Notes under the pieces: model-generated | The model's input: the letters and a program-made list of their open reading frames with translations, nothing else | Told to the model about the DNA's origin: nothing | Database searches by the model: none | Program-made: the position numbers and the translations under genes | Origin: Candidatus Saccharimonadota bacterium | Lineage (GTDB): Bacteria > Patescibacteriota > Saccharimonadia > Saccharimonadales > Saccharimonadaceae | DNA: 64,000 nt | Direction of reading: 5' to 3' | Assembly: GCA_030527585.1 (NCBI GenBank) | Contig: JAUNAL010000001.1 | Coordinates: forward strand, 64,193-128,192 | Shown here: positions 15,212 through 25,181 of the stretch, piece by piece | Position numbering within the stretch: the first letter of the stretch is position 1 | Layout of the letters: every line of letters begins with the position of its first letter

Positions 15212-15655
15212 ATGAAAAAAATATTACTCGCCATCGCAGCTATCTTTATCGGGGCTTTCGGACTTCTTGTTTCGACTCCAACGTTTGCAGCCAAAATTAA
15301 TGCTACAAACAGCAAGGGCGAAACTAGGCAATTTGAGGAAGGCAGTTGCGTCGAAACAGCAATTCTTGCGGAGTGGGATACCGATGGAGACGGGAAAATG
15401 GACTCTGCTTGTGATGGCGGAAATGGTGACAGCGTTATAGGAATTCTCGAAATTGTCCTTAATATTATGACAGTTTGTATTGGTATCGTTGGCGCCATCG
15501 GCATCACCGTTGTCGGCATTCAATATATGACCGCCGCTGATAATGAAGAGCAAGTTCGCAAATCAAAACGTCGCATGCTCGAAATCGTTATCGGTTTTGC
15601 CGCCTATGTTCTAGTATACGCGCTCCTAAAGTGGCTCTTGCCATCCTTTAAATAG
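15212..15655 (+). CDS. Pilin-like protein (TrbC/VirB2-like, CPR type)
   Basis: Signal peptide, Cys-flanked variable loop, two C-terminal TM helices with GIQYMTA...K.K.R...IVIG. Confidence 0.75.
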   Translation: MKKILLAIAAIFIGAFGLLVSTPTFAAKINATNSKGETRQFEEGSCVETAILAEWDTDGDGKMDSACDGGNGDSVIGILEIVLNIMTVCIGIVGAIGITVVGIQYMTAADNEEQVRKSKRRMLEIVIGFAAYVLVYALLKWLLPSFK

Positions 15656-15656
15656 C

Positions 15657-16565
15657 ATGAAACGCCTCTTTATCGTCTATAATCCAAACTCCTCTAAGTA
15701 TTGTCATGTTAAAACTGAAATTCTTGACTGCCCCGAAAACTTCAAAGGCTTTATACTAGGTAAGTATGCCATTAAAAAAACTAGTTTTAATAAAAACGTC
15801 GCCGACTTCTCAAAGTTCCTAGCTGACGGGGACCTCGTTCTTTCCGCCGGTGGTGACGCAACCGCCGCCATCGCAGCCAACGCAATCATTGAATCAAAAA
15901 AAGACGCAACGCTTGCCGTGCTTCCGTATGGCAACTTTAATGATCTCGCCCGTACTCTAAACACTTTCAAACTCAAAGATATTTTTAGCAAAACCGCGAC
16001 GACTAAAAAACTCCACCCGCTTTCGGTTTATGTCGACGGAAAGTTTTGGCGCTACGCAACCTGTTATACGACAATCGGTATGACCGCTGAGGCTGTTGAA
16101 CTTTTTGATGATGAAAATGTCAGGAAACAACTTCAAAAAGGCCATAAAAGCTCTTGGCGTTCCTACATTCATCTTATGGTCTGGTATTTCAAAAATCGCC
16201 ACAAAAAACAATTCATTCCCGACTTCAAATTAAACGGAAAGCCTCAGCATAAAAAAACCTCCGACTATGCCGCAGTTAATGGCTACTCAATGTGTCGTGT
16301 CATGAAAGGCGGACGCGATTATTTGGAGCCAAAAACTTTTCGTAGCATGACCGATCGCCTAACTAATTTTCCGCGCCTGTTTGTTTTAATGGTAAAGAGT
16401 ATTCTATATCGCACGCCAGGGAAGGACACAGTTGGCGACATATTAGAGTTCGATAATCTAGCAACCGTCGAAATCCAAGCCGAGGGCGAATATGAAATTT
16501 TCGAAAACATCAAAAAAATTGAAATCAAAAAAGGCGACGCATGTTTGAAGGTAATTCAGAATTAA
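15657..16565 (+). CDS. Diacylglycerol kinase-family protein
   Basis: VYNPNS, SAGGDAT, LPYGNFNDLAR, IQAEGE. Confidence 0.85.
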   Translation: MKRLFIVYNPNSSKYCHVKTEILDCPENFKGFILGKYAIKKTSFNKNVADFSKFLADGDLVLSAGGDATAAIAANAIIESKKDATLAVLPYGNFNDLARTLNTFKLKDIFSKTATTKKLHPLSVYVDGKFWRYATCYTTIGMTAEAVELFDDENVRKQLQKGHKSSWRSYIHLMVWYFKNRHKKQFIPDFKLNGKPQHKKTSDYAAVNGYSMCRVMKGGRDYLEPKTFRSMTDRLTNFPRLFVLMVKSILYRTPGKDTVGDILEFDNLATVEIQAEGEYEIFENIKKIEIKKGDACLKVIQN

Positions 16566-17341
16566 AAAAGGTCATTGCTTACATGCAGTCGCATTGGCCA
16601 AGTCAGGTCAAACCAGAATGGCAAGTTAGCCTAAACGAATATCCAGAAATTTTGATGAAAGTTCTCGCTGATTTTACTGTTGGAAAAACTAGAAACCGTA
16701 ATCTCGTCCGCATTGCAGGCCTTTCTGGATCCGGAAAAACCACCCAACTTCTCCCAGCCGTCGAAGCTTACTTTAAAAAAAATCACGAAAATCCCGTTCT
16801 CGTTGCCGCTCGCCGTTTTGCACCTTACCATCCACACTACCAAGAAATCTCAGATTTTTACGGCGAGGAAAATGTCCGAAAACTTACCGACGAATTTAGC
16901 ACGATTATGCTATTTTTAAGCTTATCGGAACTCATCAAAAACGGCTTCGATATTATTCTTGACGTTACGCTCCTCGATCCAGAAATCGAAAAAATCTTAA
17001 TCAAACTTTTAACTCACGCAAATTATGAACATTTCATTGTCATGATTGCGGCTTCACCCGAAATAACCGAAAAACATCTCTCATCTCGTAGCTGGCGCCA
17101 CAGTCGTGAAACCGAGCTCGAATTTATTCGTGCTACTACTCTCGCCCTCAAGTTTTACGCTGAAAACGCGGGCGAAACCAAAATCATCCTCTGGAATACT
17201 TACGACAAAAATCCAATCTATAATGGTCCAGTTAAAAACTCTCTCGCAACTTTCGAAAGGGAATCAAAAATCACCGAAGTCCCAGGGCATGATGAAGATA
17301 AACTAAAGCAAGCGAAAATAAAGTTTCTAAGCGAAACATAA
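16541..17341 (+). CDS. Zeta-toxin-family P-loop kinase
   Basis: IAGLSGSGKTT, HPHY, IILDVTL; overlaps the upstream gene. Confidence 0.65.
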   Translation: MFEGNSELKKVIAYMQSHWPSQVKPEWQVSLNEYPEILMKVLADFTVGKTRNRNLVRIAGLSGSGKTTQLLPAVEAYFKKNHENPVLVAARRFAPYHPHYQEISDFYGEENVRKLTDEFSTIMLFLSLSELIKNGFDIILDVTLLDPEIEKILIKLLTHANYEHFIVMIAASPEITEKHLSSRSWRHSRETELEFIRATTLALKFYAENAGETKIILWNTYDKNPIYNGPVKNSLATFERESKITEVPGHDEDKLKQAKIKFLSET

Positions 17342-17424: not shown

Positions 17425-18237
17425 CTACAACTGATTTAGATTGATCTCCGGAAAATTCGTCCGGATATGCTCAGCATACCCATTATCAATATTCTTCCAC
17501 GCATCTTTCATCCTCGCCACCTTTGAATTATCTTCAAACTGTGCCAAAAACTCCGCCTCAAACTCCTCCGGCACCGGTCGCGACAAAACCCTCGCCGTGT
17601 CCATTTGCGGATTCCCAGTCCCCGCAAAACAAAAATCAATCACTCCAATCATTTTATCATTTTCATCAAGCAAAATATTCCCAAGATTCAAATCCCCATG
17701 CACCAGCTGCCCAGTCTCCGTCTCCTTAATAAATTTATGGTCCTCATCGATGTGCGAAACATAATGCTCATAATCAAGTTCATGCAAAAAATCCGACAAC
17801 GGATATTTTACTTTTTCCGGCGCCCCCCGAAGGTCGATTCCAGAAAGTTCCTTGATAAACTTCGCCGTATCATACGCCACCCCCGTGAGCGCCGTATGTG
17901 ACAAATGATAAATTCGGTCACCCAAAGTATACCCCTCAATTTTTCTGTGCACCGAAAACGGACGTCCCGCCGCGTCATAATGAAGCTCCATTTGTGGTGT
18001 ATAAAAACTCGTCTTCCCCTCAACAAAATTACAAACCGCCGCATCCTTCACGATCATTCGCGCCCAGAATGGATTCCTTGGGAACCGGAAAAAATAGCTC
18101 CCATCATCCGTCAAAACCTCAATCACAATATTCGTCCACCCCGTCAAAATATGCTCAGACTGCAGAATTTTCTTCTCTGGAAACGTCTCCGCAATAATCT
18201 TGTTAAGTGGATCTGAAGGTGTAAAAAAATCGGCCAT
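17425..18237 (-). CDS. Aminoglycoside phosphotransferase / choline kinase-like protein
   Basis: GWTN, FFRFPR, LVHGDLNLGNILLD, GVIDF. Confidence 0.85.
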   Translation of the reverse strand: MADFFTPSDPLNKIIAETFPEKKILQSEHILTGWTNIVIEVLTDDGSYFFRFPRNPFWARMIVKDAAVCNFVEGKTSFYTPQMELHYDAAGRPFSVHRKIEGYTLGDRIYHLSHTALTGVAYDTAKFIKELSGIDLRGAPEKVKYPLSDFLHELDYEHYVSHIDEDHKFIKETETGQLVHGDLNLGNILLDENDKMIGVIDFCFAGTGNPQMDTARVLSRPVPEEFEAEFLAQFEDNSKVARMKDAWKNIDNGYAEHIRTNFPEINLNQL

Positions 18238-18272
18238 GCCCCTATTATACCATAGCTAGCCCCCTGCGCCCC

Positions 18273-18300
18273 TTGATTTTTGGAGGAAATATGCTATAAT
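18273..18300 (+). promoter_or_regulatory. Sigma-70 promoter of the Ubl operon
   Basis: TTGATT-N16-TATAAT with an extended TG. Confidence 0.65.
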
Positions 18301-18378
18301 GAAGGGTGAGGCATTCTTTTTGCATGTCTTGTAATTTAAAATCCGATTTTATATCACACGAAGAAAGGAAGTGGTTTT

Positions 18379-19467
18379 TTGAAGAAACTCAAACAAATGA
18401 AGCTAAGGCAGGGTTATGGATATGACGTCCACGGAGAAATAAATATGGGGACTTGTGCTGGCATCATGGCTGTATTTTGCTTTTTTGGTGAGGTCATAGG
18501 CGCGCTTTTTGCGCCGGCATCATCAAGGGGAATAGTAGCGTTATGTATTTTTCTCGTGGCTTGGGTAATCTACGGGTTTGTTATCTTGCTGGCCTATGAT
18601 GAACATAAACGTGACTACTATTTCTTCATTGACTTACCGCGCAGTCCTCAAGGTTTCCTTATCGGACTGTCCACCTTACCGATGTTCCCAGTCTATATCA
18701 TCAGCGGGATTCGTCTAGGTATTTGGCACTTAATGCGTCATCGCGAAGAGATTGAAGCAGCCAAAGAGTCGCTTAAGAAGCAAGAAAAAATCGATAGACA
18801 GATTAATTCTGAAAGTCGAAAGCTCCGCCGGCGAGCGCGAGAAACTTACATCAAGTATGTAACGCGCACCCGAATTAGTGGAATCGAGTCGAGACGGAGA
18901 TATCTCACAGGCCTCGTCAAAGATCAGGAGAAAGATTTGCATACTTTAGGTGAACGACTGCGCGAGATGCAACGCAACTTGGCGGAAAATCGCAAAGAAC
19001 TTGCTGGCCTCCAAATCGAGACTGAAGCCGAAAGCCGAAAACGTGCTAGAAAAGAATGGGACCAAATCCGCGATATGCGCGGCGTCATTGGCGTTAGCGT
19101 TGATGGCGATGACAGACTTGTTCTTAAGGTTCGCGTGCATGTCGAGTATAAAAAGGAGCTATATGATTTCGGCGACTATGTCGTAAAAATCGGTCAAGGA
19201 GAATCTTTTTATGCAACCGAGATTCGTTCTGGGCGACTCAAGAATCCCACTAGCGCAAGACCATATTATATGGAACGTAGCGGTTTCTGCTTCGGTAGTC
19301 GGAAGTCTGAGATACAAATGTATCTTCGTAATGGGCAACTCATTGAAGCGATTACGCTCATTATCGACTCGCTTCATTCTGCCAACCCGAGCGACGAGGA
19401 TGGGATTCCGGAATGTTTCAGAAAAGTTAGTTTAATCGAAAATCTTAAACGAAAAGCAAGGGGGTGA
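18379..19467 (+). CDS. Three TM helices + coiled coil + putative prokaryotic E2-like domain
   Basis: Three hydrophobic N-terminal segments and a charged coiled coil. C-terminal ARPYY...GFCFG (Cys codon 19288-19290) and L.SANPSD resemble Prok-E2 catalytic motifs. Operon context supports this. Confidence 0.55.
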   Translation: MKKLKQMKLRQGYGYDVHGEINMGTCAGIMAVFCFFGEVIGALFAPASSRGIVALCIFLVAWVIYGFVILLAYDEHKRDYYFFIDLPRSPQGFLIGLSTLPMFPVYIISGIRLGIWHLMRHREEIEAAKESLKKQEKIDRQINSESRKLRRRARETYIKYVTRTRISGIESRRRYLTGLVKDQEKDLHTLGERLREMQRNLAENRKELAGLQIETEAESRKRARKEWDQIRDMRGVIGVSVDGDDRLVLKVRVHVEYKKELYDFGDYVVKIGQGESFYATEIRSGRLKNPTSARPYYMERSGFCFGSRKSEIQMYLRNGQLIEAITLIIDSLHSANPSDEDGIPECFRKVSLIENLKRKARG

Positions 19468-19471
19468 TTTT

Positions 19472-20125
19472 ATGAAACTATTAATTCCACGAGACATCTA
19501 TTCGAAGATGTTGTGCTACGCGACTGCAGCTTTACCAAACGAAGTGACTGGCATTGGTATTTTGGAAACCGTTCCGAATACCACCGGTTGTGTCCAAGCC
19601 TTTCGAGTTAGCGAGGTGCGCATTGCGCCACAACGAACCTCAAACGGTTATTGCGAATTCGAAGACGAGGCTCTTCATGGCGTTCTACTCGACTTAATTG
19701 AGGAGGGTCGCACAGAAGATCTCGAGAAGCTTCGGCTTCGTTGGCATTCACACGGTGCTGGCTCCGTCTTCTTCTCGACCGTAGATGTTAAAGATATCGA
19801 AGAAAATACTTTAGACGCGGCTTGGATAGTTAGCCTGGTGATTAACACCAAAGGCGAATTTACGGCTAGACTCGACCTCTACCAGCCTTTCCGCATATCT
19901 GAGTCATTAACGGTAGAGATCGTCGATGAGTTGCCTGTCGAACTGATGGCTAGCTGTCGAGTAGAAGTGACGAAGCATCTTCGTCCTATTGCGGGACCGG
20001 CTCCAGTTTTTGCGGACAAAGTTCCGGCCACTCATAGCCAGGGAAAAAGTGGTGCGTACGCTAGACCGTATTTGAAAGGGGGTGAAGAAAATGCGGGATT
20101 TTTCGGACCAAACCAAGTTCTTTGA
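19472..20125 (+). CDS. JAB/MPN+ metallopeptidase (deubiquitinase-like)
   Basis: NEVTGIG (catalytic Glu) and WHSHG..SVFFSTVD (HxH...S..D). Confidence 0.9.
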   Translation: MKLLIPRDIYSKMLCYATAALPNEVTGIGILETVPNTTGCVQAFRVSEVRIAPQRTSNGYCEFEDEALHGVLLDLIEEGRTEDLEKLRLRWHSHGAGSVFFSTVDVKDIEENTLDAAWIVSLVINTKGEFTARLDLYQPFRISESLTVEIVDELPVELMASCRVEVTKHLRPIAGPAPVFADKVPATHSQGKSGAYARPYLKGGEENAGFFGPNQVL

Positions 20126-20753
20126 CCCAGATAGCTTCGCATGGGACGTACACATTATCGGTGCCGGAGGCATTGGCAATATGGTCGTCATGCTACTTGC
20201 TAAAATGGGCGTCCAGAAGATTCATCTTTGGGACGACGATAATTTTGAGCTTCGCAATGGACCAACCGAAGTCGCTTACAGCGAAAAATTCGTTGGTAAG
20301 CCAAAAGTTGATGTTGCTGAGAAAACCATCGAGTTTTTAGTCGGCGACCATTGCGAAATCATTAAACACTATGAGCGCGTCACGAAGAAAACTAAGCTCT
20401 CAGGCATCGTCATTAGCGGCGTCGATTCGATGGCTAGCCGCCAAGTTATTTGGCAAGCCATTAAAGAGTGCTTTCTCGATGTTGCGCTTTATATCGATGC
20501 GCGTAGTGCCGGGGAAGAAATTGCTATCTTTAATGTTCTTCCGTCTGATTTTGAAGCTTGCGAAATCTATGAAAAAGATTGGCTTTTCGATGACTCGGAA
20601 GCATCACAGTTGGCTTGTGGCGCTCGCAACATTGGCTATATTTCAACCTTAATTGCAAGTATAGTCGCCGCAAATTTAACGAAATTTGAGCAAGGCGAGG
20701 AGCTGAAATTCTTTCAGTCTCTCGATGCTTCAAATTTACACACTATGTTTTAA
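20091..20753 (+). CDS. ThiF/E1-like adenylyltransferase
   Basis: IIGAGGIG, LWDDD.FE.RN, GKPKV, SGVDS, IDAR; candidate catalytic Cys in LACG; no CxxC zinc pairs. Confidence 0.92.
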   Translation: MRDFSDQTKFFDPDSFAWDVHIIGAGGIGNMVVMLLAKMGVQKIHLWDDDNFELRNGPTEVAYSEKFVGKPKVDVAEKTIEFLVGDHCEIIKHYERVTKKTKLSGIVISGVDSMASRQVIWQAIKECFLDVALYIDARSAGEEIAIFNVLPSDFEACEIYEKDWLFDDSEASQLACGARNIGYISTLIASIVAANLTKFEQGEELKFFQSLDASNLHTMF

Positions 20754-20768
20754 AAGGAGGGTAAAAAC

Positions 20769-21014
20769 ATGGCAGGGAAAGTAGTAAGTCGCTTACCACA
20801 ACCACAAGTTAGTGTGGTAGTAGGAGGGAATACTCCAAAAACCGTTGATTATCAACAGGGAGACACTGTTGCAAGTGTTTTGCAACGTGCAGGCGTATAC
20901 CTTACTGGCAGTCAAACTGCAGCTTTAGGACGTCGTCGTGTTCAGGACGCTGCGAAAACGCCTGTTAAAGCTGGCGAAACCATCGTTGTTGCTGGCAAAC
21001 CGTCTAACGGCTAG
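20769..21014 (+). CDS. Ubiquitin-like beta-grasp protein ending ...KPSNG
   Basis: 81 aa; GDTVASVLQRAG helix, PVKAGETIVV terminal strand, C-terminal Gly; SD AAGGAGG. Confidence 0.82.
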   Translation: MAGKVVSRLPQPQVSVVVGGNTPKTVDYQQGDTVASVLQRAGVYLTGSQTAALGRRRVQDAAKTPVKAGETIVVAGKPSNG

Positions 21015-21038
21015 AAAAACTGAATATCGGATTTATTT

Positions 21039-21066
21039 AAACCGGGCTTATCGTAGCCCGGTTTTT
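21039..21066 (+). terminator. Terminator closing the Ubl operon
   Basis: AAACCGGGCT-tatcgt-AGCCCGGTTTTT. Confidence 0.85.
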
Positions 21067-21096
21067 CATATCTAAAAGTTATGTTATACTTGTCTT

Positions 21097-21663
21097 ATGG
21101 AAAATGTAAAAATTCTCGCCGTTGTTGGTATGAGTGGCAGTGGCAAATCTGTTATTGTTGATCACTTAACTTCGAAAGGCTATCCAAAAGTTTATTTTGG
21201 CGGCATGATATATAAAGAAATGGAAAAGCGGGGAATCGTTCGAACCGAAGATGGAGAATCGGAAAAGAAATTCCGCGAAATGATTCGCGAAACCGAAGGG
21301 AAGGACTGGGTTGTTCGCCAGGTCATCGCCGAAGCGAAAGATTTAATTTCTGCCGGTCAGAAACGCATTGTTTTAGATGGGGTTTATTCTTGGACGGAAT
21401 ATTGTATTTTGAAACATGAATTCCCGCGTTGTTTGAATTTTGTTGCTGTCGTTGTTGACAAGAGTCTACGCTATGGCCGTGTCGCAAATCGCCCAGGACG
21501 TTCTTTCGACGCTACCGCAATTCGCGAGCGCGATCGTTCGGAAATCGAAAATCTTGAAAAAGGTGGACCGATTGCTGCTGCGGACTATTATATTTTGAAT
21601 AACGGTACAATCGCCGAAGCGACCGCTAGGACCGATGAAATCTTAAAAGAAATCGAGTTTTAA
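21097..21663 (+). CDS. P-loop nucleotide kinase (dephospho-CoA kinase-like)
   Basis: VGMSGSGKS, IVLDGV, RDRSEIE...GGPIAAADY.I.N. Confidence 0.75.
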   Translation: MENVKILAVVGMSGSGKSVIVDHLTSKGYPKVYFGGMIYKEMEKRGIVRTEDGESEKKFREMIRETEGKDWVVRQVIAEAKDLISAGQKRIVLDGVYSWTEYCILKHEFPRCLNFVAVVVDKSLRYGRVANRPGRSFDATAIRERDRSEIENLEKGGPIAAADYYILNNGTIAEATARTDEILKEIEF

Positions 21664-24740: not shown

Positions 24741-25181
24741 ATGAAGAAAATTATTTATCGAAACCCTAATGACGCTGAAGTTTTTGAAATTAAACGTTTC
24801 CTGAAATCGCTCGGTCATTATGCAAAAATTTCCGAGAAAGAAGCGATCGAAGCCCTCGCTGACTTTGACCAGTATGAAACTATGCATGCATCCTGTCTCG
24901 TTGAAATCGGTACTAAATTAATTATGAAAAAAGAAGGCGACGAAGCCGCTCAGGAGTATTTTAACGCCCACGCTCACTATTTCGATGATGGCAACAAATT
25001 CGAACGTCTCCGCCGAATCACTGGCTATCTAGTTGGAACTTTGGATCGTTGGAATGACGCGAAAAAGGCTGAGGAAGGAGCTCGCGTGAAGCATTGCGTA
25101 AATTCTGCCATTGACGATGCGGAACGTCTCGCTGCTCTTGAAACCCAGGCGATGGAGCATAACCTCGCTTACGCTCGCTAA
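24741..25181 (+). CDS. Stand-alone NrdD C-terminal glycyl-radical domain protein
   Basis: FERLRRITGYLVGTLDRWNDAKKAE..ARVKH is the class III RNR glycyl-radical motif; protein is only 146 aa. Confidence 0.8.
   Translation: MKKIIYRNPNDAEVFEIKRFLKSLGHYAKISEKEAIEALADFDQYETMHASCLVEIGTKLIMKKEGDEAAQEYFNAHAHYFDDGNKFERLRRITGYLVGTLDRWNDAKKAEEGARVKHCVNSAIDDAERLAALETQAMEHNLAYAR

Follow-up and report, generated by a model that had tools for sequence, protein, structure and literature searches.

The window analyzed here, a 64,000-nucleotide stretch of a Candidatus Saccharimonadota genome, carries at positions 18273 to 21066 a single transcription unit in which a promoter is followed by four genes on the same strand and then by a terminator. 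The genes encode, in order, a membrane-anchored protein with a divergent E2 domain, a JAB peptidase, an E1-like enzyme, and a small ubiquitin-like protein (Ubl). The operon is a real, intact, and undescribed variant of the bacterial ubiquitin-like conjugation operons, accessory in its occurrence and with kin in phages, and its function is approached by inference. Gene structure, folds, conserved residues, homology links, and distribution are directly established, and the reading we favor, which we hold to be probable while well short of certain, is that of a self-contained ubiquitin-like conjugation cassette with a membrane-held E2. This gives a concrete and biochemically testable role to genes labeled hypothetical, in organisms rich in genes annotated without a function. 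An initial annotation of the window had described the promoter, the four closely packed genes, each led by a Shine-Dalgarno (SD) sequence, and the terminator, and all of them are present, as follows.

18273-18300, plus strand: sigma-70-type promoter, TTGATT-16-TGcTATAAT, 10 of 12 consensus positions matched, extended -10 (TG)
18379-19467, plus strand: gene 1, 362 aa, membrane-anchored and coiled-coil, with a divergent UBC/E2 domain at the C terminus (open reading frame, ORF)
18445-18732, plus strand: three hydrophobic segments, gene 1 residues 23-47, 52-73, and 92-118 (hydropathy)
18733-19029, plus strand: charged, probably coiled-coil linker, gene 1 residues 119-217 (99 residues), 44% K/R/E/D
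19030-19464, plus strand: E2/UBC-like domain, gene 1 residues 218-362 (AlphaFold2, fold matches, and profile homology)
19288-19290, plus strand: codon of the candidate catalytic Cys304 of gene 1, in the FCFG motif
19472-20125, plus strand: gene 2, a JAMM/JAB metallopeptidase of 217 aa (Pfam Prok-JAB)
20091-20753, plus strand: gene 3, a minimal single-domain E1-like adenylyltransferase of 220 aa (Pfam ThiF)
20616-20618, plus strand: codon of E1 Cys176, in LACG
20769-21014, plus strand: gene 4, an 81-aa beta-grasp ubiquitin-like protein ending Asn80-Gly81-stop (AlphaFold2 model and orthologues)
21039-21068, plus strand: intrinsic terminator with a perfect 10-bp stem (21039-21048 with 21055-21064), a 6-nt loop, and a T run

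An SD sequence is present ahead of all four ORFs. Spacing within the operon is tight, with gaps of 4 nt before gene 2 and 15 nt before gene 4, and with genes 2 and 3 overlapping by 35 nt. Gene 1 starts with TTG, 9 to 10 nt downstream of the SD sequence AAAGGAAG. For gene 3 we prefer the ATG at 20091, which is preceded by the SD sequence GGGGGTG, over the GTG at 20082 given by the ORF lister. Translation verifies the motifs FCFG, ACG, HSHGAGSVFFSTVD, and PSNG-stop at the codons assigned to them.

Proteins of the cassette

The main question about gene 1 is what its C-terminal domain is. The proposal that it is E2-like is supported by both fold and profile homology. No entry for gene 1 exists in Pfam, NCBIfam, PADLOC, or PHROGs, yet its domain profile reaches 352 cluster representatives at 50% identity. 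The AlphaFold2 (AF2) model of the domain, with a predicted local distance difference test (pLDDT) score of 91, has a helix, four strands, and further helices. The top 50 Foldseek matches are nearly all E2 or UEV, each of them weak (best E = 0.02, TM 0.3-0.5), and VIA gives Z scores of 6.5 to 5 against RWD, UEV, and E2 chains, including the bacterial CdnG-E2 and Cap2. Atlas rows for the domain include UEV, Prok-E2_D, RWD, and CBASS-E2. A separate Atlas feature search scored below 0.9 and yields leads only.

Because the fold scores are middling, a bridge at the level of sequence was sought. The domain as it occurs in bacteria of the candidate phyla radiation (CPR) has no E2 match in the Protein Data Bank (PDB) by sequence and no match to Pfam Prok-E2_A to E or UQ_con, so the link was made by way of homologues on viral contigs from IMG/VR. 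Hhalign joins the CPR and viral-contig E2-domain profiles with a probability of 99.3% (E = 1.7 × 10−20, 138 columns), bringing the CPR segment xPxYxxxxxFCFG onto the viral-contig segment HPH[VI]xxxGxxC[LWF]GN. When the viral-contig profile is in turn run against the PDB, the nine best matches are all UbcH7/UBE2L3 at a borderline E = 0.055, with the viral HPH...C on the HPN...Cys86 of UbcH7 and Y..G.F on the E2 strand motif. On the combination of fold, motif, and transitive homology, we take gene 1 to be a divergent but genuine UBC-domain protein, in which the conserved Cys304, as aligned through the viral homologues, would occupy the E2 catalytic position.

Among 63 divergent homologues at about 30% identity, the residues conserved in at least 90% are YDxGD, R66, Y80, FCFG with its Cys, A107, N119, P127, and F130. 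The HPN motif of classical E2s reads x-P-x-Y in the CPR branch (RPYY in the window), only the Pro being retained, and the alignments indicate that this branch has lost the His and the Asn. His333 and a second Cys, C346, are not general in the wider gene 1 family, so a zinc site or a Cys-His pair is not a family feature.

Ahead of the domain, the linker has only weak library matches, to coiled-coil segments of SMC and XseA. The three-segment anchor is kept in most of 150 representatives of the gene 1 family, and the window copy is without a loop of about 64 aa between segments 1 and 2. A soluble subgroup of the family has two tandem domain copies. Since the number of segments is odd, the two ends of gene 1 lie on opposite sides of the membrane. 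Summing Lys and Arg (K+R) over 97 homologues gives 11.4 for loop 1 plus the flank after the anchor and 6.2 for the N-tail plus loop 2, a count that favors a cytoplasmic E2 domain. The proposal that conjugation occurs at the membrane draws on the three hydrophobic segments, and by this count the E2 domain may lie on the inner side.

Gene 3 scores 75.2 bits against Pfam ThiF (PF00899), for which the cut-off is 28.1, and has no rhodanese, zinc-finger, or second domain in its 220 aa. The nucleotide-binding motifs and candidate Cys in LACG noted initially are borne out by G24xG26G27, D112, and R117 and by Cys176; N56 and K72 join these three glycines, D112, and R117 as invariant residues. Cys176 is kept without exception in 50 CPR and 45 viral-contig homologues, and the same Cys is found in one crAss-like phage sequence. 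The closest solved relatives by PDB sequence are UBA3, MccB, ThiF, Uba4, BubCD, MoeB, and UBA5, with matches that end at residue 134, so Cys176 is not aligned with the crossover-loop Cys of ThiF, MoeB, and UBA5. No other ThiF-family gene was found in the window's own genome, at 84% completeness. The same short-E1 subfamily is put to another use at L021:4354-7775, where a 218-aa E1, 37% identical to that of the window, lies between two isochorismatase-family genes and a major facilitator superfamily transporter, with no JAB, E2, or Ubl beside it.

That the 81-aa product of gene 4 is a beta-grasp protein, as first supposed, is confirmed by its AF2 model (pLDDT 82), by VIA Z scores of 9.0 to SAMP1, 8.1 to ThiS, 7.6 to MoaD, and 7.1 to BubA, and by Foldseek matches to TtuB, ubiquitin, and SUMO at probability 1.0. 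Its C terminus does read GKPSNG-stop, and Asn80 and Gly81 are invariant in 21 orthologous Ubls. The initial annotation had further suggested that the Ubl needs no maturation, which holds for the window genome and fails for the family, since 7 of the 21 orthologues extend 1 to 2 residues beyond Asn-Gly (C, RG, QI, R, Q, or AS). A variable tail behind a conserved Gly marks a ubiquitin-like modifier that is processed, and Bil Ubls likewise have a short variable tail after such a Gly (PMC10557695). These tails predict that the JAB of the family is probably a maturase as well as a deconjugase. Predicted as a complex, two copies of E1, the Ubl, and the E2 domain reach a score of 0.11 where the mark is 0.32, which gives no answer either way.

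The JAB metal site, which had been described as intact, is complete with E24, H92-x-H94, S102, and D105 in the pattern E...HxHx7SxxD, and it is kept in full-length homologues throughout (19/19 from CPR and 37-38/38 from viral contigs). Gene 2 scores 27.8 bits against Pfam Prok-JAB, whose cut-off is 25. The C-terminal tail of the protein, GGEENAGFFGPNQVL (window 20040-20125), comes from the stretch that overlaps the start of the E1 gene and is conserved in 3 of 4 aligned homologues with the consensus GGxENGxGLFGSAKxF; it may be a docking peptide.

Distribution and phage relatives

Searching with the E2-like domain yielded 16 species-representative loci, all of them from metagenome-assembled genomes of Saccharibacteria, Nanosyncoccaceae, or Saccharimonadales, and the order E2-JAB-E1-Ubl is found in 15 of the 16. 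The same four genes in the same order at so many loci are more than chance would give. In one species-representative genome, at L018:189-1544, the membrane E2-like gene is retained and followed by NusG/L11-type genes, and the 5 kb downstream contain neither a JAB nor an E1 nor a Ubl. Two divergent cassettes vary the theme, one (L023) having the E2 domain in tandem and VTNG at the end of its Ubl, and the other (L022) having the order E2-Ubl-JAB-E1 and ANGAS at the end of its Ubl. Some members of the family are labeled 'Nomurabacteria'.

The flanks of the cassette vary between genomes and consist of housekeeping genes, and a survey for a fifth gene found no flanking gene conserved across all loci. 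A CmpB-like and GT2 pair lies near the cassette in 6/17 loci and topoisomerase I in 5/17, recurrences that probably reflect shared genome ancestry. Sampling 401 genomes of the order finds the cassette in 6, and sampling 401 of the phylum finds it in 1, the window's own; the profile used for these counts was narrow, so divergent forms are undercounted. By the same profile it was found in none of 22 same-family genomes and none of 3 same-genus genomes, most of them being 99-100% complete. In the congeners G747 and G331, the APH-like gene and a 188-aa kinase gene that flank the cassette in the window are about 150 and about 24 bp apart with no cassette between them, which makes window positions of about 18255 to 21081 a clean 2.8-kb indel. 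Conservation in the congeners places at least the zeta-like and APH-like genes outside the indel. From this pattern we regard the cassette as an accessory, horizontally moving unit.

The empty site of G747 (L030:320-470) holds an intergenic element of about 150 bp in which a 15-nt inverted repeat, ATAAACTATTCTTGC / GCAAGAATAGTTTAT, surrounds an inner hairpin; the element may be a member of a repeat family, and insertions may recur at this site. Signs of decay are seen in some lineages, with the JAB of an orthologous cassette split over two frames at L012:5474-6249 and an E2-domain match containing 2 TGA stops at G743:C1:6432-6824. There are signs of expansion in another, G512 of the same order, where contigs C13 and C53 have four E2-domain matches in two pairs.

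Outside CPR, the best GenBank matches of the E1 are short crAss-like phage ThiF proteins, which cover about 90% of the query at 26-32% identity, with E down to 10−23; plasmid matches are only weak, with E about 10−6. For the viral contigs of IMG/VR, a narrow E2 profile gave no relatives and a broad E2 alignment gave no usable pattern, and the E1 alignment served instead. The E1 scan finds 49 loci, at least 27 of which have an ORF matching the E2-domain profile beside the JAB and E1. The records with full E2-JAB-E1 modules include genomes of 180-395 kb that have direct terminal repeats or a CheckV completeness of 95-100%, and one record carrying a module has a terminase match. These large-phage modules are true homologues of the window cassette, sharing the E1 Cys, the JAB motif, and the E2 profile. 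Their E1s show 25-41% identity and the same invariant Cys, and their E2 proteins are soluble, 320-800 aa long, and retain HPH...C[LWF]GN. The membrane anchor is in none of the viral-contig homologues examined. A Ubl is detected in some phage loci only, where it ends in GG or in G plus a tail and not in Asn-Gly. PHROGs run on the neighbors in two viral loci matched a helicase alone.

A quick E1 tree, rooted at its midpoint, gathers the 50 CPR sequences in a single group (SH-aLRT 99) inside the viral-contig diversity; under this provisional rooting, transfer between phage and CPR may have run in either direction. On these relationships we place the cassette in a wider E2-JAB-E1(-Ubl) superfamily whose other members lie in large phage genomes. 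The family thereby connects ultrasmall epibiotic CPR bacteria with large phages and crAss-like phages, a connection that suggests viruses and their hosts have exchanged ubiquitin-like machinery.

Of the cassette proteins, the crAss-like phages have just two that can be recognized, the E1 and a Prok-JAB protein. The crAss-like ThiF, which is the closest relative of the window E1 among GenBank phages, belongs to a replication-region block conserved in crAss-like phages, which in phage cr111_1 (L036, MT774387.1 58661-61891) consists of a 426-aa unknown protein, a 415-aa Prok-JAB protein, the 251-aa ThiF encoded after it, and a 224-aa unknown protein. No Ubl or E2 is recognizable by sequence in the block, and the 426-aa and 224-aa neighbors have no detectable similarity to the E2 domain. 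Five IMG/VR loci (L038, L039, L053, L058, and L079) have two or three proteins with E2-like domains near a single JAB-E1 pair, which suggests that several E2s are served by one E1.

Proposed mechanism, alternatives, and known systems

For chemistry, membrane topology, targets, and biological role, we infer the following scheme. The E1 of 220 aa, which is probably a homodimer in the manner of MoeB, ThiF, or UBA5, would adenylate Gly81 of the Ubl and accept it as a thioester on Cys176, from which it would move to Cys304 of the divergent UBC/E2 domain. A coiled-coil stalk of about 100 aa would tether this domain to the three-segment membrane anchor, and the E2 would transfer the Ubl to targets near the inner face of the membrane that are not encoded beside the operon. 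The JAB would remove the short tail after Asn-Gly in some orthologous tags and would probably reverse conjugation too. With members of the superfamily borne on phages, the most likely biology would be a part in conflict between phage and host or between epibiont and host; a conflict or accessory role is in keeping with the patchy, indel-like distribution and with the relatives on phages.

Several observations weigh against this scheme. Of HPN the CPR E2 domain has only the Pro, RWD and UEV domains, which are non-catalytic, share the top of its structural matches (Z about 6) with true E2s, and the step from the viral profile to UbcH7 in the PDB has only the E value of 0.055. For the membrane, three segments combined with a basic N-tail give, by a naive reading with the N terminus inside, an extracellular E2 domain; an inside C terminus is favored only by the K+R sum over homologues, and the window copy with its short loop 1 is ambiguous. 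No conserved target or E3 gene adjoins the cassette, and distribution is the one line of evidence for defense.

The RWD and UEV matches raise the alternative that no E2 takes part, as in tagging of the archaeal SAMP/UbaA type, with the E1 alone activating and conjugating the Ubl and the C-terminal domain of gene 1 acting as a non-catalytic UEV/RWD-like receptor for the tag or tagged proteins at the membrane, or being a substrate. Knl1 (Z 6.5), the RNF25 RWD (6.4), and the Vps23 UEV (6.3) are indeed the top VIA matches, the SAMP1 structure is the nearest to the Ubl model, and the His and Asn of HPN are missing in the CPR branch. We nonetheless consider it decidedly improbable, because the FCFG Cys is conserved in at least 90% of very divergent homologues and aligns with the Cys of the phage HPH...C[LWF]GN and, by way of those, with Cys86 of UbcH7, and non-catalytic UEV/RWD domains typically have no such Cys (Iyer et al. 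2006, PMC1779556). The same survey found JAB-Ubl-E1 trios without an E2 to be typical of sulfur transfer, and a pathway of the ThiS/MoaD/CysO/TtuB kind would have the E1 make a Ubl thiocarboxylate and the JAB mature the carrier as Mec+ does for CysO, gene 1 being functionally unrelated. The E1 does score against ThiF and MoeB models, and the Ubl fold is nearest ThiS, MoaD, SAMP, and TtuB. All the ThiF/MoeB equivalog scores are far under their cut-offs, however (54 against 275 bits, for example), the E1 lacks a rhodanese domain, and MoaE, ThiG, and rhodanese were not found in the window's own genome, which is incomplete to the extent already given. The E2-homologous domain with its conserved Cys is moreover linked in the 15/16 loci, and a cassette missing from complete congeners cannot serve a core cofactor pathway; we therefore think a sulfur carrier very improbable.

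The other alternative is inert cargo, a phage-derived module that remains in the chromosome but does nothing for the cell at present. The 2.8-kb indel relative to congeners would suit it, as would the related modules on phage records, the place of the CPR E1 clade inside viral-contig diversity in the quick tree, the split JAB of L012, and the 2 stops in the G743 match. What makes it very improbable in our estimation is that the window copy has four intact frames with their own promoter, SD sequences, and terminator, while catalytic residues are invariant among CPR copies just 30-60% identical and the 50 CPR E1s form one well-supported group, which argues that the cassette has long persisted in CPR under selection, whether passed on vertically or horizontally. 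The anchor, present in most CPR homologues and in none of the viral-contig ones examined, also looks like a CPR-specific addition.

A bolder version of the conjugation cassette, which we put forward tentatively and consider unlikely as a whole, is that the CPR cassettes and their phage relatives constitute a third, undescribed lineage of prokaryotic ubiquitination, combining a minimal one-domain E1 with an E2 derived from a canonical HPx...Cys type, and that the E2 tether of the CPR forms directs tagging to the cell envelope. Candidates for the envelope targets would be proteins of epibiont-host contact or of DNA uptake and secretion, incoming phage components, or a lipid head-group as in Atg8-PE. 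If true, this would be the first membrane-localized ubiquitin-like conjugation in bacteria.

The closest architectural analogy to the cassette is the UFM1 system (UBA5/UFC1/UfSP), in which a minimal single-domain E1 works with a non-HPN E2, the Ubl has a single Gly and a 2-residue precursor tail, and the reaction is membrane-organized. That system is eukaryotic, its UFC1 is soluble, and its membrane anchor is in the E3 complex. The likeness is offered as one of architecture; UBA5 and UFC1 are among the structure and sequence matches of the window E1 and E2 domain.

Distinctness from Bil and Bub, which had been claimed at the start, holds up: no model of Bil, Bub, type II CBASS, or PRTRC reaches its threshold in PADLOC, NCBIfam, or Pfam, and Bil has an equal gene set with a different order and E1 architecture. 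BilABCD has the same four separate genes for Ubl, E2, JAB, and E1 with no E3 encoded, a Ubl with the same kind of C terminus, and the Cys thioester chemistry also expected here (PMC10557695, PMC11601596), and Type II Bil is row 6c of Iyer 2006. Its order is Ubl-E2-JAB-E1, in contrast to E2-JAB-E1-Ubl, and its E1, BilD, is about 450-500 aa with an IAD-AAD-CYS arrangement and a zinc site, whereas the window E1 is one 220-aa adenylation domain that includes the Cys; the coiled coil and membrane anchor of the window E2 are a further difference. PADLOC finds a partial BilD match only (E = 8 × 10−6, residues 22-135) and no BilA, BilB, or BilC.

Row 6d of Iyer, Burroughs, and Aravind (2006), which is probably the PRTRC cassette, also has separate Ubl, JAB, E1-like, and E2-like genes, with an E2 lacking the classical His. 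A His C-terminal to the Cys (H333) is conserved in most close homologues of the window E2, as in that row, but not in the wider gene 1 family. The NCBIfam scores are well under threshold (PRTRC_A 25.1 against 101.8 bits, PRTRC_ThiF 24.8 against 144.75 bits), the operon has no ParB-like, alpha-helical companion, or PRTRC B-F genes, and the window JAB is without the extra N-terminal domain. Bub (6E/DUF6527) is likewise a bacterial Ubl-E1-E2 operon, and the window E1 weakly matches BubCD (E = 3.5 × 10−5). Bub systems have fused Ubl-E2, JAB-E1, or E2-E1, a DUF6527 serine protease, and oxyester intermediates on Tyr or Ser with no catalytic Cys (PMC11601596), whereas the window genes are separate, have no DUF6527 match, and encode two invariant Cys. 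As for type II CBASS (Cap2/Cap3), there is no CD-NTase in or beside the operon, E1 and E2 are unfused, and the PADLOC E1-E2 (CBASS) matches cover the Rossmann part of the E1 only. The cassette accordingly represents a further family of bacterial ubiquitination-like operons beyond Bil, Bub, and type II CBASS, distinguished by the smallest possible E1, a membrane-anchored E2, and a tag ending Asn-Gly. In the literature searched, no publication joins CPR with ubiquitin-like terms.

Flanking genes and further observations

The 5' flank of the cassette is an APH-family phosphotransferase gene on the minus strand (17425-18237). Upstream lie a type IV secretion system pilin-like gene (15212-15655), a DAGK-like gene (15657-16565), and a zeta-toxin-family kinase gene (16541-17341, Pfam E = 1.7 × 10−20), and further flanking genes encode an AAA kinase and PolA. 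As the initial annotation had observed, no thiamine, molybdenum cofactor, cysteine-synthesis, or CD-NTase gene is among the flanking genes. The borders of the cassette are without terminal direct or inverted repeats, the leader at 18305-18400 folds no better than its shuffles (z = +0.86), and Rfam has no match within 17900-21300. Among sequencing runs searched for the operon, no RNA data set was listed, and one DNA run shares 8% of its words. Farther downstream, window positions 24741-25181 encode a stand-alone 146-aa protein whose match is confined to the glycyl-radical C terminus of NrdD (Pfam E = 8 × 10−7, profile positions 531-562 of 562).

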